DNA of 64,000 nucleotides. Source: Acidobacteriota bacterium. Lineage in GTDB: Bacteria > Acidobacteriota > Thermoanaerobaculia > Gp7-AA8. Of this stretch, positions 2,945 through 53,428 are shown in pieces (within the stretch, counting starts at the first letter, position 1; every line of letters starts with the position of its first letter). The stretch covers positions 66,438-130,437 of the forward strand of contig JAFATB010000013.1 in the NCBI GenBank assembly GCA_019244185.1, read 5' to 3'. The notes beneath the pieces were generated by a model. It ran no database searches. It had not been told where the DNA came from and saw only the letters and a program-made list of their open reading frames with translations. Both the position numbers and the translations under genes were made by a program.

Positions 2945-3618
2945 AGAGCGCGCCGGAACAGCGCGAGCGTCCGCTGCCACGCGTCGGCCGCCGCATCCGC
3001 GTTGTAGACCTCGGGACGCGCGTCATTGAAGAACGCGTGATCGGCATTCGGATACTCGATCGCCTCGGCGTCTTTGCCCATCTCGCGCAGCTTCTCCGCG
3101 AGCGCGCGGCCCTGCTCGTACGGCACGTTCTTGTCCTTCTCGCCGTGGATCAGCAGGACCGGACCGGCGAGGTTCTCCCACGGCATCTCCAGCTTGCGGA
3201 AGCCGCCGTAGAAGCTCACGGCGGCGCCGAAGACTCCCGGGCTCTTCACCGCCGCGTACTGCGCGAGCGCGCCGCCCATGCAGAAGCCGACGACGCCCAC
3301 TTTCTTCGAGGTACAGCCGGGCTGCTGCAGCAGATACGCGCCGGCGCCGGCGATCTCGGTCTCGGCGCGGTCGGCGTCGAGCTCCATCAGCAGTTTCATC
3401 GCGTCGTCGGGCGACTTGGTGGTCTTGCCGTGATACAGATCCGGCGCGATGGCGACGAAGCCGGCGGCGGCGAAGCGCTCGACGAGATCCTCGATGTGCG
3501 GCACGAGGCCCCACCACTCCTGAATGACCACGACGCCCGGGCCGCTGCCCGATTCCGGCGACGCGAAATAGCCCTGACACGTATGACCGTTGGAAGGAAA
3601 CGTTACGCGCTGTCCCAT
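2941..3618 (-). CDS. dienelactone hydrolase family protein
   Basis: 225 aa alpha/beta hydrolase with nucleophile elbow GFCMGG and the DLH-family pattern (VVVIQEWWGL, HGEKD...ADHAF). Confidence 0.85.
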   Translation of the reverse strand: MGQRVTFPSNGHTCQGYFASPESGSGPGVVVIQEWWGLVPHIEDLVERFAAAGFVAIAPDLYHGKTTKSPDDAMKLLMELDADRAETEIAGAGAYLLQQPGCTSKKVGVVGFCMGGALAQYAAVKSPGVFGAAVSFYGGFRKLEMPWENLAGPVLLIHGEKDKNVPYEQGRALAEKLREMGKDAEAIEYPNADHAFFNDARPEVYNADAAADAWQRTLALFRRAL

Positions 3619-3695
3619 GGCGGCGGATTCTAACGCCTTCGTGACGGATTGCGCGGCGTCAGGCTGTGCGAAAATCGGGAGGACGAGCGCGTCGC

Positions 3696-3950
3696 ATGCA
3701 CATGACGAAAGATGAGGTGAACGGTCTCGCGAAGCGGCGCAACTGCCCGCGTTGCGATCTCGACAAGACCGTCGGCAACGCGCTCTGCCGCCGCTGCCGC
3801 GCGAAGCTGCCGCCGCACATGCGCCTCGGCATCGAGAACATCCCCTCGAAAGACGGAGGCGTCGTCGGCAGCGCGCTCCGCGCCGCGGCGAACTACTTCA
3901 ACGTGCACTTCGCGTCCGTGCGCAAGTTCGGCGGCGGCAAGAAGCGCTAG
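3696..3950 (+). CDS. small hypothetical protein, putative zinc ribbon (CPRC...CRRC)
   Basis: 85-aa ORF from the internal ATG of ORF 3666..3950. Genome-typical GC3-rich codon usage, two CxxC pairs, basic C-terminus. No homolog recognised. Confidence 0.4.
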   Translation: MHMTKDEVNGLAKRRNCPRCDLDKTVGNALCRRCRAKLPPHMRLGIENIPSKDGGVVGSALRAAANYFNVHFASVRKFGGGKKR

Positions 3951-3966
3951 GGCGCCGCGCGCCGCG

Positions 3967-5493
3967 CTACATCCCCGCGCCCGACGAGGCGTTCGCCGCT
4001 GCCGCGAGCTCCTTCGCCCGCGCGTCGCGGCGATCCTGCAACGCGAGCTCCTCGGCGCGCCGTGCGATGTCCACGCCGCCGCCCGTCCCCTTCAGCGACT
4101 CGCCCCAGACGGCGCCGAGGGACGCGAGACGATGCCGGCGTGACGCCGCGGTCCACGGCCGCGTGAAGTCGCCCGCGTGGATCACGCGCTCGATCGTGTG
4201 CGTGCGGCCGTCGCTCACCGACGTGTAACGCAGACGGATCGTCGCCACGCGCTGCATCGCGCGCAGGCCGCTCTTCAGTTCGAGCGCGTAGAGCCCCGTG
4301 ACGGACACGTTGTGCAGCAGCGCCGACTCCGGCGCGATGTCGTCGCTCTCGCCGATGCGATGGAACGACGCGACCGCGTCGCCGTCGATGTCGACGTCGA
4401 GCGAGGCGTCCTTCGCGATCGGCGGCGTCGAGGCGCCGCCGGCGATCGGCATCGCTTCGGTGTCGACGGTGAAGCGCACGATGCCGCCGTTGCCCGACGT
4501 CTGCACCGGCGCTGGCGAGGCTTCGACTTCGAGGCGCACGCCGTGCTTCGGCGGCTTTGCCGGCGCGCCGGCGAAGTAGTTGACGAGCGCGTCGACGTTG
4601 ACGCGATTCGCCGCGGGACGGCCGCCGTTTTCGAGCGTGGTCTTGATCTGATGGAAGACGTCCGCGTCGACGGAGATGCCGAAGACCGCGCGGCGCGGGC
4701 CGAGATCGAGGTCGACCGCGTACGCTTCGCGCACGATCGACGACGAGTTCGCGGTTTTCGCCATGCGCGGCGCGGCGGTCGCCGCCGCGGTGGCAACAGG
4801 CGCCGCGGGCGGAGCGGCGGGCGCCGGCGCGTTGTCGGCCATCTGCTGCGGCGCGGACTGGACCACGATGCCTTCCGACACCGCGCCGCCGACCACGTTC
4901 CCGACGGTTCCACCGACCACGCCGCCTTCGACGCCGCCCGCGTTCTCCGCGAGCGCATCGCGCGCGGGCGCTGTTTCGTTGCGCGCCGCGACGCGCGCGT
5001 CGGCGAGTTGCTGCACCGGCGCCGCCTCGGCACGCGCGCGTTGGCGTTGCGCGGCGATTTCCGGCGCGGGAACTTCCGGCGCGGGAACTTCCGGCGCGGG
5101 AACGGCCACCGGCATCGCCGCCGGCGGCGCCTGCGCGATCTCGACGCGCACTTCGCTCGGCGTCGGCGAGGTCACGGTCACGTCGGCGGCGCGCTGCGGC
5201 GCGGCCATCGGCGCGCGCGGCGGCAGCGCGGCAGCCGTCTTCATCGAGACGAGGTTCGGGTCTCCTTCCCGCAGCAGATGCATGGTCACGAGGACCGACG
5301 ACACCAGGAGGATGATCGAGGCGGCGATGCGGAAGTTCAGCGTCATCGACCGCGACAGGCGGCGGCGTTCGTTTTCCGCGTCGAGGTACTTCGGGATATC
5401 GGCCTTGATGCGCTCCGCGAGTCCCGCCGGCGGACGCGGGACCGCCGTCAGGGACAACTTTCGCTGAAGCTCGGCTCTGCGCTTCACATTCAT
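3967..5493 (-). CDS. anti-sigma factor, single-pass membrane protein with large extracytoplasmic domain
   Basis: Its 5' end overlaps the upstream ECF sigma stop by 4 nt. One TM helix (IAASIILLVSSVLVTM) follows a short cytoplasmic N-terminus; then an Ala/Pro-rich linker with a (VPAPE)x3 repeat and a C-terminal globular domain. Confidence 0.7.
   Translation of the reverse strand: MNVKRRAELQRKLSLTAVPRPPAGLAERIKADIPKYLDAENERRRLSRSMTLNFRIAASIILLVSSVLVTMHLLREGDPNLVSMKTAAALPPRAPMAAPQRAADVTVTSPTPSEVRVEIAQAPPAAMPVAVPAPEVPAPEVPAPEIAAQRQRARAEAAPVQQLADARVAARNETAPARDALAENAGGVEGGVVGGTVGNVVGGAVSEGIVVQSAPQQMADNAPAPAAPPAAPVATAAATAAPRMAKTANSSSIVREAYAVDLDLGPRRAVFGISVDADVFHQIKTTLENGGRPAANRVNVDALVNYFAGAPAKPPKHGVRLEVEASPAPVQTSGNGGIVRFTVDTEAMPIAGGASTPPIAKDASLDVDIDGDAVASFHRIGESDDIAPESALLHNVSVTGLYALELKSGLRAMQRVATIRLRYTSVSDGRTHTIERVIHAGDFTRPWTAASRRHRLASLGAVWGESLKGTGGGVDIARRAEELALQDRRDARAKELAAAANASSGAGM
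5059..5103. repeat. 15-nt perfect tandem repeat x3 (ttccggcgcgggaac) inside the anti-sigma linker
   Basis: Directly visible as cgggaacttccggcgcgggaacttccggcgcgggaac. It encodes VPAPEVPAPEVPAPE on the minus strand. Confidence 0.7.
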
Positions 5494-7054: not shown

Positions 7055-8488
<1,434 letters not shown>

Positions 8489-8609
8489 CAGAGGGTGGAT
8501 TCATGCGATGATCTCCATACATCCGTAAAATCTGATGCAAAGTGCGGTACTCTACGCGAGTCCAAGTCGTCGTCCGGAGAGAGGTCGTCGTCAAATCGCC
8601 GTCCACGGC

Positions 8610-8639
8610 AGAAAACGTGGTAACGTGAGATGGGTCTAA
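8610..8639 (+). promoter_or_regulatory. candidate ECF-type promoter (GAAAAC-N18-GTCTAA) for the sigma gene
   Basis: GTCTAA, the classic ECF -10 element, lies at about 8634-8639; an AAC-containing -35-like hexamer GAAAAC lies 18 nt upstream at 8606-8611. The region is locally AT-rich. If this promoter is real, translation should begin at the in-frame GTG at 8693, which has an AGGAAAGG Shine-Dalgarno. Confidence 0.3.
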
Positions 8640-9322
8640 AATCCGCGAATCTGCAACGTTCCGCCGAACAGGTGCGTGAAGGAAAGGCCGCCGTGCTGGA
8701 ACAGAACGCAAGCGATGGATCAACCGGCGCTTCCCCTCGGCGAAGCGAGAAGAAGCTGCAGGCCGATGCGAATCGCATCGAGAGCGAGCCGGGCGCGCAG
8801 CCGCTGCCGCCGACGCAAGCGGCCGACGACGTCGAGGCGCTCTACATCCAGCATCGCAAGCTCCTGCTCTATGTCGCGTGCCGCAAGTTCCGCATCCCGG
8901 AGAGCGACGCGGAGAGCCTGACCCAGGAAGTCTTCCTGTCCTTTCTGCAGAACGGCACGAAGATCGACAACGTCCGCGCGTGGCTCGTGGCCGCGATGTG
9001 CAATGCGAGCCGGCATTTCTGGCGCGCGTCGGGACGCACCGAGTCGCTGCCGGACGACTTCAACGATCACTCCGATCCCGATTCGGTCGGCCTCGCCGAT
9101 CAGTTCGCGATGCGCATGACCGTGCATCAGGCGCTCGAGTACCTCCAGCCGCGCTGCCGCGAGACGCTCTACCTGCACTACTTCGAAGGGCGTTCCGCGA
9201 ACGACGTCGCGCGCGAGCTCGAGACCACGAACCGCTACGCCGAAAAGCTGATCCACAACTGCCTCAAGCGCGTCCGTGAGATCTATCTCAACATCACGAA
9301 CGTGCAGAAATCGCCGAAGTGA
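8630..9322 (+). CDS. ECF RNA polymerase sigma factor (probable true start GTG 8693)
   Basis: Region 2 (EALYIQHRKLLLYVACRKFRIPESDAESLTQEVFLSF) and region 4 (LYLHYFEGRSANDVARELETTNRYAEKLIHNCLKRVR) are present. The N-terminal ~20 codons of the ORF overlap the putative promoter. Confidence 0.8.
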   Translation: MGLKSANLQRSAEQVREGKAAVLEQNASDGSTGASPRRSEKKLQADANRIESEPGAQPLPPTQAADDVEALYIQHRKLLLYVACRKFRIPESDAESLTQEVFLSFLQNGTKIDNVRAWLVAAMCNASRHFWRASGRTESLPDDFNDHSDPDSVGLADQFAMRMTVHQALEYLQPRCRETLYLHYFEGRSANDVARELETTNRYAEKLIHNCLKRVREIYLNITNVQKSPK

Positions 9323-9326
9323 TGTG

Positions 9327-10682
9327 ATGGATACGGCCATGGTCGAACGCCACTACGACGAAGAGGCCCTCATCCCGTTCCTCGACGCCGGCCGCGCCGC
9401 CGCCGACCTCCACCTGCTGGCCTGCGCCGAGTGCCGCGACAAGCTCGAGAACTTTCGCCAGCTCGCCGACACGCTGCGCGAAGAAGACGTGTGGGACACC
9501 CGCGTCCTCGCCGCCCCGCCCGTCCCCGAGACTATCCGCAGTCTGCGCGCATTCGCCGACCGTGCCGCCGCCGAAGACACCGCCGCCGAGGCGTTCGTGG
9601 CGGAGCTCCTCGCCGGCGATCGCGAAACCTGGATGCCGCGATTGCAGCAACACCCCGAATGGCGCACCGCCGGCATGGTCCGCCGCCTCCTCGCCGCATA
9701 CGAGCGAGCCCTCGACACCATGCCCTCCGACGCCGTGGCCATCACCTCCCTCGCGATCGACATCGCCGAGCAACTCCCCACCACGGCCCACCCCGGCGAC
9801 ACGGTGGCGAAGTTGCGGGGCGCGGCGTGGAGGGATCGGGCGTACGGACTGTTGTTCACGGGGCAGTTCGCGAAAGCGGAAGAGGCTCTTTTTGTCGCTG
9901 AAAGTCACTTTAGTGACTGCTTCATTGCCGACTATGACCTCGCGCGCGTCGGCATCGTGAAATCGTTGGTACTTCGTGCCTGCGAGCGCTTCGATGTCGC
10001 AACTGATGCGGCGCAGAAGAGCACGCGCACGTTCACGTTGTACGAAGACGACACGCGCGCAATGTCTGCCGGTCTAGCCGAGGCGCAATTACTGTTCAGC
10101 AGAAGCGAATTCGCCGAGGCGTTTACACGCCTTTCGAACTTGACGCGCCGGCTCGCGCAGTCGAGTGACACGCGCAACTATGCGCGCGTCCTTTCGAATC
10201 TCGGGTACTGCTGCTGGAAGCTCGGCCGGATCGAGGAAGCTTTGCAGCATCACCAAGTCGCGGCCGCTTTCATGGAGGCGGACAGCCGCAGTGAAGCCGC
10301 GAAAGAGAAGTGGAACATCGCGTCGATTCTCGCGAGCGAAGGCCGCTTCGCAGAAGCGCTCAATCGATTCGACGATCTTCTTCAAGAGTTCGAGTCCTTA
10401 GGGATGACGAACGCGTGGGCTCTCGTCAATCTCGAAATAGCGGAGATTCGTTTGTCGCTCGGCCAGTACGAAACGGTGGAAGACATCTGCCGCTCTGCCA
10501 TGCGAACGTTCGAAGCCGCGGGGTTGGCGCACACCGAGCGAGCCCTGCGGGCGCTCGCGTTCATGCGTGAGGCGGCACAAAATCGGACAGCGACGCCGGT
10601 CTTGGTTCGCCATGTCCGGGAGTACGTGCGGCGAGCTCCGAATGAGCCGCAACTTCTATTCGCTCCACTGCCGCTGGACTAA
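9327..10682 (+). CDS. cytoplasmic anti-sigma factor, zinc-finger (HxxxCxxC) N-terminus with TPR-like C-terminal repeats
   Basis: ATG at 9327 lies 4 nt after the sigma stop. The N-terminus carries the LHLLACAECRDKL putative-zinc-finger anti-sigma motif. There is no TM segment. The C-terminal half is a run of helical TPR-like repeats (NLGYCCWKLGRIEEALQHH...). Confidence 0.65.
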   Translation: MDTAMVERHYDEEALIPFLDAGRAAADLHLLACAECRDKLENFRQLADTLREEDVWDTRVLAAPPVPETIRSLRAFADRAAAEDTAAEAFVAELLAGDRETWMPRLQQHPEWRTAGMVRRLLAAYERALDTMPSDAVAITSLAIDIAEQLPTTAHPGDTVAKLRGAAWRDRAYGLLFTGQFAKAEEALFVAESHFSDCFIADYDLARVGIVKSLVLRACERFDVATDAAQKSTRTFTLYEDDTRAMSAGLAEAQLLFSRSEFAEAFTRLSNLTRRLAQSSDTRNYARVLSNLGYCCWKLGRIEEALQHHQVAAAFMEADSRSEAAKEKWNIASILASEGRFAEALNRFDDLLQEFESLGMTNAWALVNLEIAEIRLSLGQYETVEDICRSAMRTFEAAGLAHTERALRALAFMREAAQNRTATPVLVRHVREYVRRAPNEPQLLFAPLPLD

Positions 10683-10780
10683 ATCGAAAAATCCATTCGC
10701 CCGAGGTAGGGATTTGATGCGCTGCGTCACTCCCTATGGCAAGGGCGCGCCTTCCCAACCACCACCGCTAGGAGGGCGTT

Positions 10781-10978
10781 ATGAAATCGTACAAAATCCG
10801 TCTTGCCGCTGCCTGCTTTGCCGCGGTTCTGTCTCTGCCTGCGTTTGCTGCCGCTGATGTGCCGCGTGAGAATCCCGGACGCGATATCACCGCAAGGCTG
10901 ATCCGGATCATCAAGCAGATCGCCAAGCCGATCGGCATTGTCGCTCACGATGACCAGCCGCAGCTTCCCCGTCCCTGA
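10781..10978 (+). CDS. small secreted peptide precursor (65 aa; Sec signal peptide plus ~41-aa cationic amphipathic mature peptide)
   Basis: Strong Shine-Dalgarno (TAGGAGGGCG) 5 nt before the ATG. Signal peptide MKSYKIRLAAACFAAVLSLPAFA with an AFA|AAD cleavage context. The mature region ITARLIRIIKQIAKPIGIV is helical and amphipathic. Codon usage is T-ending and atypical for this genome. Confidence 0.55.
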   Translation: MKSYKIRLAAACFAAVLSLPAFAAADVPRENPGRDITARLIRIIKQIAKPIGIVAHDDQPQLPRP

Positions 10979-11020
10979 CCCGCAACCCAACCCCCGCCCG
11001 CCCGTACAATGTGCGCGGTA

Positions 11021-11052
11021 GCGCGCCGAAGCCCGGATGGGCTTCGGCGCGC
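11021..11052 (+). terminator. perfect 14-bp GC stem-loop (gcgcgccgaagccc-ggat-gggcttcggcgcgc) between the peptide gene and the ABC transporter
   Basis: The inverted repeat is directly visible. There is no U-tract after it, so it may be a partial terminator, attenuator or RNA-stability element rather than a canonical intrinsic terminator. Confidence 0.35.
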
Positions 11053-11077
11053 GCGCCGTGAGGAGCGTGCTTGGCTG

Positions 11078-12028
11078 ATGGGTGAGCGAATGGGGTCGCG
11101 GGAGATTCTCGCGGTACGGGACATCGTGAAAGTGTTTGGCGCCGTGCGGGCGGTGGATGGGATTTCGTTCACCGTGCGGCGGGGGACCATCACCGGGCTC
11201 CTCGGGCGCAACGGCGCGGGGAAGACGACGACGATCCGGATGATCACCGGCATCTTCATGCCGGACTCCGGGGAGATCCGCTGGCTCGGCGGCGAACACG
11301 GCGGCGCTTTCCAGGACCGCATCGCCTATCTGCCCGAAGAGCGCGGGCTCTACAAGCAGATGAAGATCATCGAGCATCTGCTGTTCCTCGCGGAGATCAA
11401 AGGCTGCCGCGGCAGCGATCTGCGCAAGAAAATCGACTACTGGCTCGACCGCTTCGAGCTCGGCGCGAAGCGCAATGCGAAGGTCGAGGAGCTGTCCAAA
11501 GGCAACCAGCAGAAGATCCAGCTCATCGGCACGCTGCTGCACGATCCCGATCTCATCATCCTCGACGAGCCGCAGTCGGGGCTCGATCCGGTCAACATGG
11601 TCCTCGTGCGCAACCTCCTACAGGAACTGCGGCAGGAGGGAAAGACGATTCTCCTCTCGACGCACATGATGGGAGAAGCGGAGCGCATGGCCGACGAGAT
11701 CATCCTCATCCACCGCGGCAAGGTCGTCCTCGACGGCACGCTCGAGGAAGTGCGCGCGTCGTTCGGCAAGAACACGCTGCATCTCGACTTCGAAGGCGAC
11801 GGCTCGTTCCTCGAGACGCTGCCGCAGGTGAAGCGCGCCACGGTGCTCAGCAACACCGCCGAGCTCGCGCTCGCGGAAGGCGCGGACCCGCAGCAGATCC
11901 TTGAGGCGTCGATGTCGCGCCTGCGCATCCGCCGCTTCGAAGTCGCCGCTCCGTCGCTCGAGTCGATCTTCATCGAAAAGGTCGGCACCGAGACGCTGTC
12001 GCAGCAGGAGGAGGCGGCGCAGCCATGA
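11078..12028 (+). CDS. ABC transporter ATP-binding protein (ABC-2 type exporter ATPase)
   Basis: Walker A (GRNGAGKTT), ABC signature (LSKGNQQK), Walker B (ILDEP), H-loop. ORF 11009 likely starts at the internal ATG at 11078, which is preceded by GAGGAG. Confidence 0.9.
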   Translation: MGERMGSREILAVRDIVKVFGAVRAVDGISFTVRRGTITGLLGRNGAGKTTTIRMITGIFMPDSGEIRWLGGEHGGAFQDRIAYLPEERGLYKQMKIIEHLLFLAEIKGCRGSDLRKKIDYWLDRFELGAKRNAKVEELSKGNQQKIQLIGTLLHDPDLIILDEPQSGLDPVNMVLVRNLLQELRQEGKTILLSTHMMGEAERMADEIILIHRGKVVLDGTLEEVRASFGKNTLHLDFEGDGSFLETLPQVKRATVLSNTAELALAEGADPQQILEASMSRLRIRRFEVAAPSLESIFIEKVGTETLSQQEEAAQP

Positions 12029-13359
12029 ACAAGATGATCGCGGTGCTCAAGCGCGAGTACCTTCAAGCCGTCCGCAAGAAGATGTTCATCATCATGACCT
12101 TCGCGTTCCCGTTCCTGATGGGCGCGATGATCACGCTGCCGGGCCTCATGGTCTCGCGCGGCCTCGGCACGAAGCGCATCGCGGTGCTCGACGGCACGGG
12201 CAGCCTGCGCGACGCGTTCAATCGTCCCAACGAGCAGCCGAAGAAGGACGCGAAAGACGAGGCGCGCGCCGCCCTCTCCGGCCGCCGTCAGATGGAGATC
12301 CCGTCCGAGCTCGACATCGAATACGTCGATCAGCAGAACATCGCGGACGTACAGCAGGCCGCCGATCCGTATCTCAAGAGCCTGCGCGCCGAAGGGAAGA
12401 ACGCGCACTACGACGGCGTCCTGGTCATTCCGCGCGACGCGATGACCTCGGACGACGCGAAGCTCACGTATTACAGCCGCAGCGCCACCGACCTCGTCAC
12501 GCAGGAGCGCCTCGGCCGCCTCGCGAACAAAGTCATCCAGCGCCACCGTCTCGCCGCGAACGGCATCAACATCGAGACCGTGGAGAAGCTGACGACGGAC
12601 GTTCCCGTCGAGAGCGTGCAGATCTCGCGGAGCGGCGAGCAGAAGAAAGGCGGCGACATGAACTTCATGCTCGCCTTCGTCTTCGCCGCGCTCCTGCTGC
12701 TGCCGTCGTTCATCTACGGCAACGACATCATGCGCGGCATCGTGCAGGAGAAGACGGAGCGCGTCGTCGAGGTGCTGATCTCGTCGATGAAGCCGTTCGA
12801 GCTGCTCACCGGCAAGATCCTCGGCGTGGCCAGCGTCGGCCTCACGCAGATCAGCGTCTGGATCGCGATGCTCGCCATCGCCGGCGCGTACGGCGTGGCC
12901 GCGGCGTCGATGGCGGGGATCAACGTCGCGCAGTTCCTCCGCCCGATCGTCTTCGTCTACTTCTTCGTCTTCTTCATCCTCGCGTACCTCACCTACGTCT
13001 GCGTCTACGCGATCGCCGGCGCGATCTCGAACTCGGAGAAAGAAGCGCAGCAGTTCGTCGCGCCGATCAGTCTCGTCATGATGGCGCCGTGGTTCATGAT
13101 GTTCCCGATCATCATGAATCCCGACTCGAAGCTGGCGGTGGCGTTCTCGCTGATGCCGGTGTTCGGACCGATCACGATGTTCGTGCGCACGCTCGTGTCG
13201 GAGCCGCCGCTGTGGCACATCGCGGTCTCGATCGCGGTGTCGCTCGTGACGATCGGCGTCTTCTTCTGGACCACCGGAAAGATCTTCCGCGTCGGCATCC
13301 TGTCGTACGGCAAGCGTCCGACGATTCCGGAGCTGTGGAGGTGGATGAAGGTGGCGTGA
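12025..13359 (+). CDS. ABC-2 family transporter permease (NatB-like)
   Basis: 4-nt overlap with the ATPase gene. N-terminal TM, large periplasmic loop, then a C-terminal 5-TM bundle typical of ABC-2 permeases. Confidence 0.85.
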   Translation: MNKMIAVLKREYLQAVRKKMFIIMTFAFPFLMGAMITLPGLMVSRGLGTKRIAVLDGTGSLRDAFNRPNEQPKKDAKDEARAALSGRRQMEIPSELDIEYVDQQNIADVQQAADPYLKSLRAEGKNAHYDGVLVIPRDAMTSDDAKLTYYSRSATDLVTQERLGRLANKVIQRHRLAANGINIETVEKLTTDVPVESVQISRSGEQKKGGDMNFMLAFVFAALLLLPSFIYGNDIMRGIVQEKTERVVEVLISSMKPFELLTGKILGVASVGLTQISVWIAMLAIAGAYGVAAASMAGINVAQFLRPIVFVYFFVFFILAYLTYVCVYAIAGAISNSEKEAQQFVAPISLVMMAPWFMMFPIIMNPDSKLAVAFSLMPVFGPITMFVRTLVSEPPLWHIAVSIAVSLVTIGVFFWTTGKIFRVGILSYGKRPTIPELWRWMKVA

Positions 13360-13422
13360 GCGGGCGGGCGCGTCGCGCTGATATCATCGGCGCCCTCAGC
13401 ACTATCCGAGGGAGACGCGTGC

Positions 13423-15240
13423 ATGCAGGAACCGAAGACTCTGAACGACATCTACGCGGTGACGTGTTCGATCGACCGACCCGCGATCATGAAGTCGAAG
13501 CGCGGCGGCAAATGGGTCGACGTGTCGGTCCCGGAGTTTCGCGACACCGTCCGCTGGCTCTCCTCGGCGCTGCATGAGCTCGGCGTGAAGCCGGGCGATC
13601 GCGTCGGCATCCTCTCCGAGAATCGTCCCGAGTGGACGATCGCCGACTTCGCGATCCTGACCGCCGGCGGCGTGAGCGTGCCGGTCTATCCGACGCTCCT
13701 CGGCTGGCAGATCGAGTACATCCTCAATGACGCCGGCACCGTCGCCGTCATCTGCTCGAATCAGGAGCAGCTCGACAAGGTGCTCGAGATCCGCCCGCAC
13801 GTGCCATGTCTGCACACGATAATCGTCTGCGATCCGCCCGCGAACCTTCCCGCGGGCGTGAAGACGTATCACGACGTCGTCGAGGCAGGCCGGCGTTGGG
13901 AGGCGGCGCACGGGCCGAACTGGTTCGAGCAGTCGCGCACGCGCGCGACGCCGGGCGATCTCGCGACGCTCGTCTATACGTCGGGCACGACGGGCAATCC
14001 GAAAGGCGCGATGCTGACGCACGGCAACATCACCAGCAACGTCGTCACCGTGCGCGACATCGTGCCGTTCCGCACCGGCGACACCGCGCTCTCGATCCTG
14101 CCGCTCTCGCACATTCTCGAGCGCATGACCGACTTCCTCTTCTTCTACAAGGGCGGCACGATCGCGTACGCGGAGAACGTCAACAAAGTCGCCGACAACC
14201 TCGCGGAGGTGCGGCCGCAGTACTTCGCGGCGGTGCCGCGGCTCTTCGAGAAAATGCGTTCGCGCATCCTCGACAACGTCGCCACCGCACCGGCGGTGCG
14301 GCAGAAGATCTTCCGCTGGGCGCTCGGCGTCGCGGAGGAGCGGCTGCCGATGATGGTGGAGAAGAAGCCGCTCACCGGCATGCTGAAGATCAAGTCCGCG
14401 ATCGCGGACAAACTGGTCTTCAGCAAGATCGTGGAGCGCCTCGGCGGCAACGTGAAGTACGTCGTCTCCGGCGGCGCGCCGCTCTCGGCCGACCTCGCGG
14501 CCTTCTTCATCGGCGCGGGCGTGGAGATCCTCGAAGGCTACGGCCTCACCGAAACGTCGCCGGTCATCGCGGTCAATCGTCCCGACAAGCGCCGCATCGG
14601 CAGCGTCGGTCCGATCATCCCCGGCATCGAGGTGAAGATCGCCGAGGACGGTGAGATCCTCACCCGCGGACCGCACGTGATGAAAGGCTACTGGAACAAT
14701 CCCGACGCGACGGCGCAGGCCATCGACGCGCAGGGCTGGTTCCATACCGGCGACATCGGCGAGATCGACCGCGACGGCTTCCTCAAGATCACCGACCGCA
14801 AGAAAGACATCATCATCAACGCGTATGGCAAGAACATCGCGCCGCAGCCGCTCGAGGCGCTGCTCAAGAGCTCTCCGTACGTCGGCACGCCGGTGCTCAT
14901 CGGCGACCGCCGCAAGTTCCTCACCGCGCTGATCGTGCCGAACTTCGAGAAGCTCGAGCGCGACGCGGCGTCGCTGGGCGTCTCCGTGCATTCGCGCGAG
15001 GAGCTCGTGAACAACGAGCGCATCCGCGCGCTGATCCAGGACGAGATCGACCGCTTCAACCAGAACCTCGACCGGCAGGAGAAGATCCGCCGCTTCGCGC
15101 TCCTTCCGCGCGACTTCACGATCGAGGAAGACGAGATCACGCCGTCGCTCAAGGTGAAGCGGAAGGTGATCGACAAAAAATACAAGCAGGTGATCGACTC
15201 GCTGTACGCGGACGAGAACCTCGTGGAAGCCTCCGCATGA
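13423..15240 (+). CDS. fadD: long-chain fatty acid--CoA ligase (AMP-dependent synthetase)
   Basis: AMP-binding signature LVYTSGTTGNPKGAMLTH, an A8-type motif (GWFHTGDIGEIDRDGFLKITDRKKD), and a long-chain-type insertion. Confidence 0.9.
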   Translation: MQEPKTLNDIYAVTCSIDRPAIMKSKRGGKWVDVSVPEFRDTVRWLSSALHELGVKPGDRVGILSENRPEWTIADFAILTAGGVSVPVYPTLLGWQIEYILNDAGTVAVICSNQEQLDKVLEIRPHVPCLHTIIVCDPPANLPAGVKTYHDVVEAGRRWEAAHGPNWFEQSRTRATPGDLATLVYTSGTTGNPKGAMLTHGNITSNVVTVRDIVPFRTGDTALSILPLSHILERMTDFLFFYKGGTIAYAENVNKVADNLAEVRPQYFAAVPRLFEKMRSRILDNVATAPAVRQKIFRWALGVAEERLPMMVEKKPLTGMLKIKSAIADKLVFSKIVERLGGNVKYVVSGGAPLSADLAAFFIGAGVEILEGYGLTETSPVIAVNRPDKRRIGSVGPIIPGIEVKIAEDGEILTRGPHVMKGYWNNPDATAQAIDAQGWFHTGDIGEIDRDGFLKITDRKKDIIINAYGKNIAPQPLEALLKSSPYVGTPVLIGDRRKFLTALIVPNFEKLERDAASLGVSVHSREELVNNERIRALIQDEIDRFNQNLDRQEKIRRFALLPRDFTIEEDEITPSLKVKRKVIDKKYKQVIDSLYADENLVEASA

Positions 15241-50968: not shown

Positions 50969-51798
50969 TCTCGCGCCGCGCGTTTTCTTCCACGCTCGTC
51001 GCCGGAGCGGCCGCAATGGCGTCGCCGCTGCGACTCGCTGCCGCGACGCCGGCTGCAGCGGTCGCGCCGCTGCGCATCCAACGCCTGTCGTGGGCGGGCA
51101 TCCGCCTGGAGACGCCGGAGACGACGCTCTTCATCGATCCGTGGACGTCGAAGGCGGCGTGGGGCGGCACGTGGCCGCGCCCGATCGTGCCGCTCGAGGC
51201 GTCGAGCAAGCGCCGCTCGGTGCTCATCACGCACCTGCACAACGATCACTTCGACGCGGCGGCGCTGAAGCTGCTGCTGGCCGAAGGCGGCGCGGTGTTC
51301 TGCCTCGACAAGCTCGCGCCGGTCGTCGCGTCGAAAGGGCTCGTCGCGCGGCCGGTCGAGCTCTTTCATCCCGAGGCGTTCGGCGACTTCGTGTTCATCC
51401 CCGTGTCCGCCGCGGACGGCTTCGGCGAGACGCAGGTGTCGTGGATCGTGAAGGCCGCGGGCATGAACCTCATCCACTGCGGCGACACCGTTTGGCACAG
51501 CGGCTTCGAGCTCGACGGCCGCGCGTACGGTCCGTTCGACGTCGCGTTTCTGCCGATGAACGGCGCCGTGATCCGCGGACGCCCGATCGACGTCGACGTC
51601 CCCGCGACAATGACGCCCACGCAGGCGGTCGCCGCGGCGCTGCTGCTGCGCGCGAAGCTGGTCGTGCCGATCCACTACGGCGTCTCCGAGGACGACTACC
51701 GCGAAGAGCCGAACGCGATCGAGGAGACGAAGCAGCTCGCCGCAGCGAAAGGCGTCGCGGTGCGCTTCGTCGATGAAGGCGAGTGGGTGATCAAGTAG
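50965..51798 (+). CDS. metallo-beta-lactamase-fold metallo-hydrolase with Tat signal peptide
   Basis: Twin-arginine motif (SRRAFSS...AAAMA). HxHxDH metal-binding motif (THLHNDHFD) and the downstream His/Asp pattern of the metallo-beta-lactamase fold. Confidence 0.75.
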   Translation: MISRRAFSSTLVAGAAAMASPLRLAAATPAAAVAPLRIQRLSWAGIRLETPETTLFIDPWTSKAAWGGTWPRPIVPLEASSKRRSVLITHLHNDHFDAAALKLLLAEGGAVFCLDKLAPVVASKGLVARPVELFHPEAFGDFVFIPVSAADGFGETQVSWIVKAAGMNLIHCGDTVWHSGFELDGRAYGPFDVAFLPMNGAVIRGRPIDVDVPATMTPTQAVAAALLLRAKLVVPIHYGVSEDDYREEPNAIEETKQLAAAKGVAVRFVDEGEWVIK

Positions 51799-53065
51799 TT
51801 GACCTTCCGTCGCGCGTCCGGTCGCCGATTCGTTCACCGGTGATGAGGCGCGCGCCGCGCTGATAGGTGAGGTACGCCCATGCCCACTGCGTGATGACGA
51901 GGAAGCGGTTGCGGAAGCCGATGAGAAAGAAGATGTGGATGACCAGCCAGGCCAGCCACGCGAAGAAGCCGCCGAAGCGGATGCGTCCGAAGTCGGCGAC
52001 GGCGGCGGCGCGGCCGATCGTCGCCAGGGAGCCTTTGTCGCGGTAGCGGAACGCGCGCAGCGGCTGTCCTTCGAGCGCGCGCTCGAGATTGCGCGCGGTG
52101 TGCTGTCCTTCCTGAATCGCGGCCGGCGCGACGCCGGGCACGAACGCGCCGTCGCGCTGCTTCGCCGCGGCGAGATCGCCGATTACGAAAACGTCGCGGT
52201 GTCCCGGAATCGTCAGCTCCGGCTCGACGAGTACGCGTCCGGCGCGATCGAGCGGCACGCCGAGCGAATGCGCGAGCGGCGAGGCCTGCACGCCCGCGCC
52301 CCACAGCACCGTCCGCGTCGCAATCGAACGCTCGCCGATGCAGACCTCGGTATCGTTGACGCCAGTGACGATCGCGCCGGTGATGACCTCGACGCCGAGG
52401 TGGACGAGTTGCTTGCGCGCGCTCTCGGAGAGCGAGGGAGGATACGGAGGCAGCACGCGCTCGCGCCCTTCGGTGAGGATGACGCGCGCGCCTTCGGGAT
52501 GGATGCGGCGGAAGTCGCGGAGCATGGTCTGGCGCGCGATCTCGGAGAGCGCGCCCGCGAGCTCGACGCCGGTGGGTCCGCCGCCGATCACGACGAACGT
52601 GAGCAGCGCCTGCTGCGTCGCGGGATCCTCCTCGCGTTCGGCGGCCTCGAAGGCGAGCAGCACGCGGCGGCGGATCTCGAGCGCGTCGTCGATGGTCTTG
52701 AGCCCCGGCGCGAAGCGCTCCCATTCGGGATGGCCAAAGTACGAATGCGTGGCGCCGGTGGCGATGACGAGATAGTCGTACGCGAGCGTCGCGCCGTCGG
52801 CGAGGTGCACCTGTTTCTGTGCAGCGTCGACGGACGTGGCGTCGCCGAGGATCACCTCGACGTTTTTCTGGTGGCGCAGGATCGCGCGGATCGGCGCGGC
52901 GATGTCGCTCGGATTCAGCGCCGCGGTGGCGACCTGATAGAGCAGGGGCTGGAAGAGATGGTAGTTGTGGCGGTCGACGAGCGTGATCGCGCAGTCGGCG
53001 TGCGCGAGACCGCGCGCGGCGTAGAGGCCGGCGAAGCCGCCACCGAGGATGACGACGTGAGACAT
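51791..53065 (-). CDS. ndh: type II NADH dehydrogenase (NDH-2) / NAD(P)/FAD-dependent oxidoreductase
   Basis: Two Rossmann GxGxxG motifs (VVILGGGFAGL; VVIGGGPTGVELAG) and a C-terminal amphipathic membrane-anchor helix. Confidence 0.9.
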   Translation of the reverse strand: MSHVVILGGGFAGLYAARGLAHADCAITLVDRHNYHLFQPLLYQVATAALNPSDIAAPIRAILRHQKNVEVILGDATSVDAAQKQVHLADGATLAYDYLVIATGATHSYFGHPEWERFAPGLKTIDDALEIRRRVLLAFEAAEREEDPATQQALLTFVVIGGGPTGVELAGALSEIARQTMLRDFRRIHPEGARVILTEGRERVLPPYPPSLSESARKQLVHLGVEVITGAIVTGVNDTEVCIGERSIATRTVLWGAGVQASPLAHSLGVPLDRAGRVLVEPELTIPGHRDVFVIGDLAAAKQRDGAFVPGVAPAAIQEGQHTARNLERALEGQPLRAFRYRDKGSLATIGRAAAVADFGRIRFGGFFAWLAWLVIHIFFLIGFRNRFLVITQWAWAYLTYQRGARLITGERIGDRTRDGRSTT

Positions 53066-53075
53066 CGCGGTGAGT

Positions 53076-53366
53076 TTATGCGGGGTCGTTGCCGAAGCGT
53101 TCCGCGAACTCGCGCACGATGCGGCGCATGTCGTCGAGCAACGCGGGATCTTCCGCGAGGCGCTGTTTGACGGCGACGAGGAACGGCACGTCCGGCTCGT
53201 CTTCGGGCGACCCGTTGCGCTCGATGAACTCGAGCCAGCTATCCGGGTTTCCGTCGAAGACGTTGAGCAGGATCTGAACGCGGGCGAAGTTCTCGGCCAC
53301 TCCCCAGAAACTCCAACGCGGAGCCCAATCGATCACATCGACCGAGTCGTGCGCACCAAAAGCCAA
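53076..53366 (-). CDS. hypothetical small acidic protein
   Basis: 96-aa ORF, genome-typical codon usage, no domain recognised. Confidence 0.4.
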   Translation of the reverse strand: MAFGAHDSVDVIDWAPRWSFWGVAENFARVQILLNVFDGNPDSWLEFIERNGSPEDEPDVPFLVAVKQRLAEDPALLDDMRRIVREFAERFGNDPA

Positions 53367-53428
53367 TCAACACCCCTTCACTACGACACTCAACTGAAGG
53401 AGTGACGGAGAGAGGGCGTTCCCTACCA

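Follow-up and report, generated by a model that had tools for sequence, protein, structure and literature searches.

The window analysed here, a stretch of 64,000 nt with a GC content of 67.6%, belongs to contig JAFATB010000013.1 of an acidobacterial metagenome-assembled genome (class Thermoanaerobaculia). Between positions 8,610 and 13,359 its forward strand carries genes for a sigma factor of the extracytoplasmic function (ECF) type, a cytoplasmic anti-sigma candidate with tetratricopeptide repeats (TPRs), a small Sec-type peptide and, after a hairpin, an ATPase–permease pair of the ABC-2 type of ATP-binding cassette (ABC) transporters. A first-pass annotation of the DNA had read these five elements as one functional unit. 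All five are present, and the single unit dissolves on comparison with relatives, as the peptide/sigma pair and the ABC pair each occur alone. The conserved unit is made of three genes, those of the ECF sigma, the soluble anti-sigma candidate and the small peptide. The ABC-2 pair and the fatty-acid genes that come next have -10-like boxes of their own and are neighbours by synteny. The features of the cassette are as follows.

8611–8639, + strand: GAAAAC-N17-GTCTAA, ECF-promoter-like candidate site, sole match in the window
8630–9322, + strand: ECF (group IV) sigma factor, with Pfam Sigma70_r2 and Sigma70_r4_2 and TIGR02937
9327–10682, + strand: cytoplasmic anti-sigma candidate, 451 aa, with a ChrR-like H...HxxxCxxC motif and TPR_12/TPR_1
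10705–10733, + strand: bipartite motif GGTAGGGA-N15-CACTCC, candidate promoter with fixed spacing and variable spacer
10747–10779, + strand: 5' leader of the peptide mRNA, where the anti-Shine–Dalgarno box GCGCCUUCC (10747–10755) pairs with the Shine–Dalgarno region GGAGGGCGU (10771–10779)
10781–10978, + strand: 65-aa pre-peptide gene, assessed by family alignments, profile search, the ratio of non-synonymous to synonymous substitution rates (dN/dS) and predicted helices

Related loci were drawn from a genome scan queried with the permease (33 loci) and from a metagenome scan with a seven-sequence anti-sigma alignment (80 loci). Gene order in the relatives runs from a DUF1684 gene and an M20 peptidase gene on the opposite strand through sigma and anti-sigma genes, a gap of ~400 bp, ATPase and permease to an acyl-CoA ligase gene and FadB.

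The peptide gene belongs with the sigma/anti-sigma pair and not with the ABC transporter. It follows the anti-sigma gene in the window, in 26/26 genome loci that have the pair and in 71/80 metagenome loci. Seven of the remaining nine metagenome loci end at or just after the anti-sigma gene; the other two are L074 and L116. In L074 a 1.7-kb insertion (3261–4971) follows the anti-sigma gene, and the motif of the peptide gene then appears at the contig end. Similarly, GGTAGGGA-N15-CACTCC is already visible at the contig end in L053, whose contig stops near the anti-sigma gene. Adjacency of the candidate receptor gene and the peptide gene holds for the window and about 97 related loci. On a more distant contig (P0107, Logan SRR33394504) the peptide gene faces, in convergent orientation, a 382-aa TPR gene and a 191-aa gene presumed to encode the sigma, and no ABC pair lies nearby.

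The sigma factor carries only regions 2 and 4 of the sigma-70 regions, as expected for the ECF type. Residues 71–136 match Sigma70_r2 and residues 163–213 match Sigma70_r4_2, both over the Pfam cut-offs, and TIGR02937 scores 54 bits against a cut-off of 42.9. Identity among relatives is 56–83% (about 100 loci). A conserved N-terminus, MGLKSxNLQRS, precedes an extension of ~60 aa that is variable and poorly conserved. The sigma ATG is devoid of a Shine–Dalgarno site in the window (8617–8662) and stands 3 nt past the invariant CGTGGTAACGTG, so that its translation may be leaderless or otherwise unusual. One locus (L024, 4076–4561) has a sigma homologue before the ABC pair, with neither anti-sigma nor peptide gene.

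The candidate site GAAAAC-N17-GTCTAA resembles an RpoE-type ECF promoter and differs from the motif upstream of the peptide gene. It overlaps CGTGGTAACGTG, which has the look of an extended -10 (TGnTAnnnT) just 5' of the sigma ATG, and both GTCTAA and TGnTAnnnT are kept upstream of sigma in relatives. GTCTAA also makes up codons 2–3 of the longest sigma ORF (open reading frame), within the conserved MGLKS... N-terminus. Distant relatives keep the hexamer even where that reading frame is closed. By eye, differences among relatives in the first sigma codons look mostly synonymous; in a column count, codon positions 1, 2 and 3 had 10, 11 and 12 variable columns respectively, without an excess at the third. 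For that reason GTCTAA as the sigma's own -10 stays a candidate only.

The anti-sigma candidate starts 4 nt past the sigma stop (database copies begin at 9339), and the gap or overlap between the two genes is only a few nucleotides in nearly all loci. Its zinc motif consists of H29-x3-C33-x2-C36 plus H9, each at least 90% conserved in homologues; in homologue numbering, H5, H25, C29 and C32 are invariant in 43 anti-sigma homologues. HxxxCxxC, a fourth zinc ligand upstream of it and a helical N-terminal domain, the marks of class I zinc-binding anti-sigma (ZAS) factors, are thus all found. TPR_12 and TPR_1 are both over their Pfam cut-offs. A search for membrane segments found none, the highest 19-aa Kyte–Doolittle mean being 1.26. 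The first-pass annotation had suggested that the pair could sense envelope stress caused by the peptide, which is unlikely because the anti-sigma candidate has no membrane or periplasmic part. In the AlphaFold2 model (mean pLDDT, predicted local distance difference test, 90) four N-terminal helices (8–17, 24–28, 30–47, 63–90) are followed by about sixteen paired helices, and residues ~150 to 447 are predicted to form a superhelix of about eight TPRs. The closest bacterial folds are the Rap and NprR peptide receptors. In public records the protein is labelled only "tetratricopeptide repeat protein" or "hypothetical protein".

The 65-aa ORF is a genuine gene of a conserved family under purifying selection. 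AGGAGGG lies 4 nt upstream of its ATG. The N-terminus, with a K/R-rich start, a hydrophobic core and an AxA site, is predicted to be a signal peptide of about 24–26 aa, leaving a mature part of about 40 aa with a net charge of about +2. From these features the product is predicted to be a secreted peptide. Along the mature part come an RD motif, an amphipathic RIVRIIKKI-like helix, an acidic pair and a Pro-rich end, mostly P-[KRH]-P. AlphaFold2 placed helices at 3–21 and 34–48, with low confidence.

An ORF of the same design (60–74 aa) fills the gap in every one of the 26 genome loci with the sigma/anti-sigma pair, as it does in the window. Altogether, 101 related loci gave 96 unique members of 57–74 aa, with a predicted signal peptide of about 26 aa, a mature part of about 38 aa, a median of 3 K/R in the first 10 residues and a median net charge of +2 (range −2 to +5); cysteine is nearly absent. 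The helix is the best-conserved part, and the helical hydrophobic moment of the family is 0.8 compared with 0.5 in shuffled sequences. Some members have no terminal Pro. In all 18 usable pairs dN/dS was 0.05–0.39, about 0.2.

A single-sequence search with the peptide recovered only itself. A first profile search found 37 members, and an exhaustive one yielded 403 cluster representatives (50% identity), nearly all of 57–76 aa and matched end to end. None of the 403 carries a Pfam domain or a name, the peptide matched no named family in Pfam, NCBIfam or PADLOC, and public records label it "hypothetical protein". The first-pass description of a small ORF with a strong Shine–Dalgarno site, a predicted Sec signal peptide and a cationic amphipathic mature part, outside any named family, was borne out, and the conservation and purifying selection that it had proposed to look for are both seen.

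Two observations concern the wider family. A short metagenome contig (L034) holds three tandem, slightly different peptide genes of 57 aa each (33–206, 215–388, 397–570), followed by a convergent gene and not by an ABC ATPase. The top match of the profile search, P0038 (1164 aa), arose through 20 repeated matches to profile positions 8–37; it is probably a low-complexity or repeat protein and not a relative of the peptide.

Control region of the peptide gene

Upstream of the peptide gene, 92 unique leaders share one layout: GGGTAGGGA, a free spacer of 15 nt, CACTCC, 6–10 nt, AGGGCGC(GC)CCTCC, a variable loop, GGAGGG(C/T)G and the ATG. In the related loci searched (1.09 Mb in total), GGTAGGGA-N15-CACTCC with at most one mismatch occurs in 95 copies upstream of peptide genes. 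There are only 4 other matches, each downstream of an anti-sigma gene, and 2 of these (L079, L080) lie just upstream of a peptide gene that had been missed by the hidden Markov model step. The fixed spacing and the free spacer, together with the lack of column covariation in the 15-nt spacer across 90 leaders, point to a promoter, which is probably read by the sigma of the cassette. Further downstream, the Shine–Dalgarno sequence is paired with the 5' CCCUCC box in the minimum-energy fold of 91/92 unique leaders.

The window contains a second exact copy of the bipartite motif:

53399–53427, − strand: GGTAGGGA-N15-CACTCC, 42 kb away, in the gap after a 133-aa Cys-rich ORF

This copy lies about 32 nt upstream of a 96-aa ORF (53076–53366, − strand), for which no family match was found, and a type II NADH dehydrogenase (NDH-2) gene (51791–53065, − strand). 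The chance of an exact motif match in the window was calculated here as about 1e-3 at its GC content. The 96-aa ORF and the NDH-2 gene are possible further members of the regulon of the peptide gene.

The boxes could also be read as a riboswitch-like structured RNA, with all three genes in one operon transcribed from the sigma promoter. The alternation of G-rich and C-rich boxes (GGUAGGGA, CACUCC, AGGGCGC, CCCUCC, GGAGGG) is in its favor, and at the second motif copy CACUCCUUCA can pair with UGAAGGGGUG. Nevertheless, the spacer shows no covariation, rigid spacing around free sequence is promoter-like, and the second copy is without the downstream boxes. A scan with Rfam across 8300–13600 returned noise only. 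Moreover, the peptide gene that is convergent with the TPR gene on the P0107 contig needs a promoter of its own. A structured RNA leader is therefore considered quite improbable.

Co-variation of peptide and candidate receptor and the proposed mechanism

Co-variation between peptide and receptor was assessed across 50 non-redundant loci, phylogeny being removed via the distances of M20, ATPase and permease. The whole peptide tracks the TPR domain with a partial r of 0.55, and the mature peptide does so with a partial r of 0.44–0.45 (Mantel p = 0.0002–0.001). Values for the peptide against the N-terminal sigma-binding domain (−0.01), the linker (0.06), the sigma (0.00) and a fast-evolving permease loop (−0.05) were close to zero. 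As a positive control, the sigma-binding domain and the sigma, which are expected to interact, gave a partial r of 0.34.

The tentatively preferred interpretation, held at somewhat less than an even chance, is that a peptide/TPR-receptor cassette controls the ECF sigma and that the peptide gene is a target of this sigma. The anti-sigma candidate would hold the sigma through its N-terminal domain, with the TPR domain acting as sensor and the peptide encoded next to it as cognate partner. The peptide gene would be read from its own promoter, GGTAGGGA-N15-CACTCC, probably by the sigma of the cassette; the second copy of this motif precedes the 96-aa ORF and the NDH-2 gene. The CCCUCC box at the start of the peptide mRNA may mask the Shine–Dalgarno sequence, so that output would be gated twice. 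The peptide would be exported by Sec and might then re-enter the cytoplasm, entire or as a C-terminal fragment, or it might be caught before export; in either case it would bind in the TPR groove. Such binding would alter the hold on the sigma and close a feedback loop.

Several points weigh against this proposal. Binding, re-import and sigma release are hypothetical steps. In a diderm cell, a returning peptide would have to get across the outer membrane and would depend on an importer. The pheromones of the RRNPP systems of Firmicutes and phages are short and variable, whereas the mature peptide has about 38 aa, a conserved helix and a nearly invariant P-[KRH]-P end. In the fold search the eukaryotic LGN/Pins outscores Rap, TPR folds being alike. 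Correlation with the TPR domain is just as strong for the signal-peptide segment (r = 0.47) as for the mature part, so that co-inheritance of TPR domain and peptide as a block, or binding of the unexported precursor, would explain the signal equally well. The motif GGTAGGGA-N15-CACTCC is absent upstream of the sigma gene, and its link to this sigma is by adjacency alone. The soluble zinc-finger anti-sigma with TPR-like repeats of the first-pass annotation is borne out in motif, repeats and lack of a membrane segment, and no Pfam model, that of anti-sigma zinc fingers included, matched the first 104–110 residues of four members at E ≤ 10. An hhalign comparison with a provisional ChrR sequence placed the zinc ligands in register at a probability of 5%, which is not significant.

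A more specific form of the preferred reading is a pheromone of RRNPP design outside Firmicutes, in which the TPR receptor is the ECF anti-sigma and the returning peptide frees the sigma, giving auto-induction and a small regulon. This form is regarded as rather unlikely.

The peptide might instead be output only. Weakly cationic, amphipathic and periplasmic, it would be what the ECF regulon chiefly makes at this locus and would act on the envelope or on neighbouring cells, and the TPR domain would sense something else, such as another protein or, via the zinc motif, thiol or redox state. The dedicated promoter-like motif, the strict translational gating of the peptide gene and the strong conservation of its amphipathic helix are consistent with this. 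In addition, a redox regulon under a zinc-motif anti-sigma would fit with the NDH-2 gene that follows the second motif copy. It leaves unexplained, however, why peptide divergence tracks the TPR domain and not the sigma or the sigma-binding domain, and the net charge, about +2, is low for a membrane-active peptide. A role as output only is doubtful, although it comes next after the preferred reading in likelihood.

Secretion-coupled partner switching has precedents in ExsE/ExsC and FlgM, and the cassette could be an export monitor of a comparable kind. The TPR domain would bind the unexported precursor; when Sec slows down, the precursor would accumulate, occupy the anti-sigma and free the sigma. 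Such a monitor agrees with the wholly cytoplasmic location of the anti-sigma candidate and with the co-variation of the signal-peptide segment, and it makes an importer unnecessary. Nevertheless, no Sec or envelope genes were seen under the motif, the only second target being the 96-aa ORF with NDH-2, and block co-inheritance accounts equally well for the signal-peptide correlation. An export monitor is accordingly thought improbable.

The neighbouring ABC-2 pair and hairpin

Downstream of the peptide gene the following features were mapped.

11005–11010, + strand: TACAAT, -10-like box of the ABC-2 unit, found in 80/84 unique leaders
11016–11058, + strand: GC-rich stem-loop with a perfect 14-bp core (11021–11052) and no U-tract
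11078 (or 11090)–12028, + strand: DrrA/NatA-type ABC ATPase, with ABC_tran and DrrA1-3_C
12025–13359, + strand: ABC-2 permease, with ABC2_membrane_3 (Pfam E-value 6.6e-54)

Both the perfect 14-bp GC stem-loop and the ABC-2 pair with a 4-nt overlap were correctly recognized in the first-pass annotation. The stem pairs 11021–11034 with 11039–11052 around a GGAU loop, and the fold of the region has a z of −3.5. The ATPase and permease genes overlap by ATGA, and their Pfam domains were confirmed. The ATPase start homologous to that of relatives is probably 11090.

The box CCCG-TACAAT-AC comes after the peptide stop and before the hairpin in the same 80/84 leaders, which include loci without the cassette. 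Given this position, and its presence in loci that have no peptide gene, the hairpin is read as a 5'-leader element of the ABC transcript, near whose predicted 5' end it lies. Relatives have hairpins at the same place, the 3' arm usually abutting the start codon, and the version in the window is enlarged to 14 bp. Judged by eye and unscored, the arms differ among loci yet stay complementary (ACCCG/CGGGU, ACGCCGC/GCGGCGU). The hairpin was also considered as an intrinsic terminator or attenuator; this was rejected, as it has no U-run, is not called by a terminator scan and has the conserved -10-like box upstream of its stem. It may help to protect the peptide transcript at its 3' end.

In two cassette-free loci, L026 (about 7070–7084) and L030 (about 2105–2120), the ATPase ATG stands 7 nt past TACAAT, which suggests a leaderless transcript. 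In cassette-bearing loci the ABC leaders are 25–100 nt long and contain a stem. Insertions of 0.6–1.8 kb lie between the peptide and ATPase genes in three loci (L048, 3113–4853; L050, 7663–9452; L060, 7640–8252). A further conserved box, TATGAT/TATCAT, is seen beyond the permease gene at 13360–13422 of the window and in the same gap in L001, L003, L016, L055 and L073. It is placed about 35–45 nt upstream of the acyl-CoA ligase ATG, with or without a preceding ABC pair.

The first-pass annotation had seen in this arrangement the layout of a precursor, an attenuator and a dedicated exporter. On that model, a bacteriocin or signalling precursor under the ECF pair would be followed by a hairpin that attenuates read-through into an ABC-2 gene pair serving as dedicated exporter or immunity pump. 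The same-strand order and proximity in most loci are consistent with it, and the ATPase is distantly similar to lantibiotic-protection and phenol-soluble modulin export ATPases, far below the cut-offs. Each gene set occurs alone, however. In L012, L026 and L030 the ABC pair adjoins the M20 gene, and sigma, anti-sigma and peptide genes are all missing, which is the persistence without the peptide that the first-pass annotation itself had named as telling against its proposal. Conversely, L055 and L073 have no ABC pair and the acyl-CoA ligase gene comes right after the peptide gene, no ABC genes lie within 3 kb of the cassette in L046, and the P0107 contig also has the peptide gene without the pair. 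The conserved -10-like box between the peptide gene and the hairpin, the leaderless ABC genes of L026 and L030 and the missing U-tract argue against this model. Because the peptide has a predicted Sec signal peptide, an ABC exporter would not be needed. Neither a double-glycine leader nor a peptidase-bearing transporter was found, the leader being Sec-type and the ATPase and permease being free of peptidase domains. The exporter model is therefore very improbable, and the independence of the ABC pair from the peptide is close to settled.

The pair was compared with the named NCBIfam equivalogs, among them GldA (gliding), DrrA, NodI, lantibiotic protection and PmtA, all of which scored below their cut-offs. 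The best ATPase scores were 211.1 against 402.6 for GldA and 202.9 against 312.45 for DrrA, and the best permease score was 67 against a cut-off of 435. No relative of the permease with a solved structure was found. A defence system was considered and rejected, PADLOC showing generic ATPase similarity only.

Comparison with known systems

SecM, VemP and MifM are secretion-monitor arrest peptides. An export signal at the N-terminus and a Pro-rich end mark the small ORF of the cassette, as they do theirs, and in both a hairpin and genes for membrane proteins come next. The cassette differs in that the distance from stop to hairpin varies widely, with a -10-like box in between, that the downstream genes are not Sec or YidC and that the terminal Pro is sometimes missing. 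A ribosome-arrest or secretion-monitor peptide was rejected on the grounds of the variable distance, the intervening box and the missing Pro. With NatAB/DrrAB-type ABC-2 transporters the pair in the window shares domain make-up and 4-nt coupling, whereas it stays below every named equivalog cut-off and is not linked to the peptide. For annotation, this means that the neighbouring ABC-2 pair should not be labelled the exporter of the peptide.

For few soluble ECF anti-sigmas with large sensor domains is it known how the signal is received. The ZAS anti-sigmas (ChrR–RpoE of Rhodobacter, ECF11; RsrA/RshA, ECF12) resemble the candidate in the position of the gene directly after that of the ECF sigma, the lack of a membrane segment, the H...HxxxCxxC in a helical N-terminal domain and the separate C-terminal presumed sensor. 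In the cassette, by contrast, this sensor consists of about eight TPRs and not a cupin, and a secreted-peptide gene is always alongside. The cassette may belong to ECF270, which the review PMC8999054 lists as an Acidobacteria sigma with a soluble ZAS partner and a mechanism given there as unknown.

Secreted peptides that signal through a cytoplasmic TPR receptor are seen as typical of Gram-positive bacteria and their phages. If the pheromone form of the preferred reading is true, a diderm soil phylum would have quorum sensing by peptide with a direct line to RNA polymerase. The hosts are abundant, uncultured soil Acidobacteriota. Next to the sensor the cassette encodes a candidate ligand; it also supplies a candidate target promoter and, for work on specificity, hundreds of natural receptor–peptide variants.

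The RRNPP signature comprises a small pro-peptide (10–100 aa), Sec export, a receptor of 250–500 aa, TPRs and adjacent genes (PMC10075063). All five points are found in the cassette, Sec export from sequence features only; the pro-peptide has 57–74 aa, and the receptor is cytoplasmic, has 447–451 aa and carries TPRs. Common descent with the Firmicutes RRNPP receptors could not be established, and their output domains were not found. As in Rap/Phr, NprR/NprX, PlcR/PapR and AimR/AimP of Firmicutes and phages, a small pro-peptide is encoded beside a cytoplasmic TPR receptor. Rap and NprR are the closest bacterial folds of that candidate receptor, the resemblance to Rap being to its peptide-bound form, and sensor domain and peptide diverge together. 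In RRNPP systems the output is a helix-turn-helix domain or a phosphatase, whereas in the cassette it would be a zinc-motif anti-sigma domain with an ECF sigma. The host is a diderm acidobacterium, and the mature peptide, about 38 aa long, has a conserved helix and a near-invariant Pro-rich end. On the best reading, this would be a peptide/TPR-receptor signalling cassette with ECF-sigma output, a variant not described before, for which both the output and the host phylum would be new.

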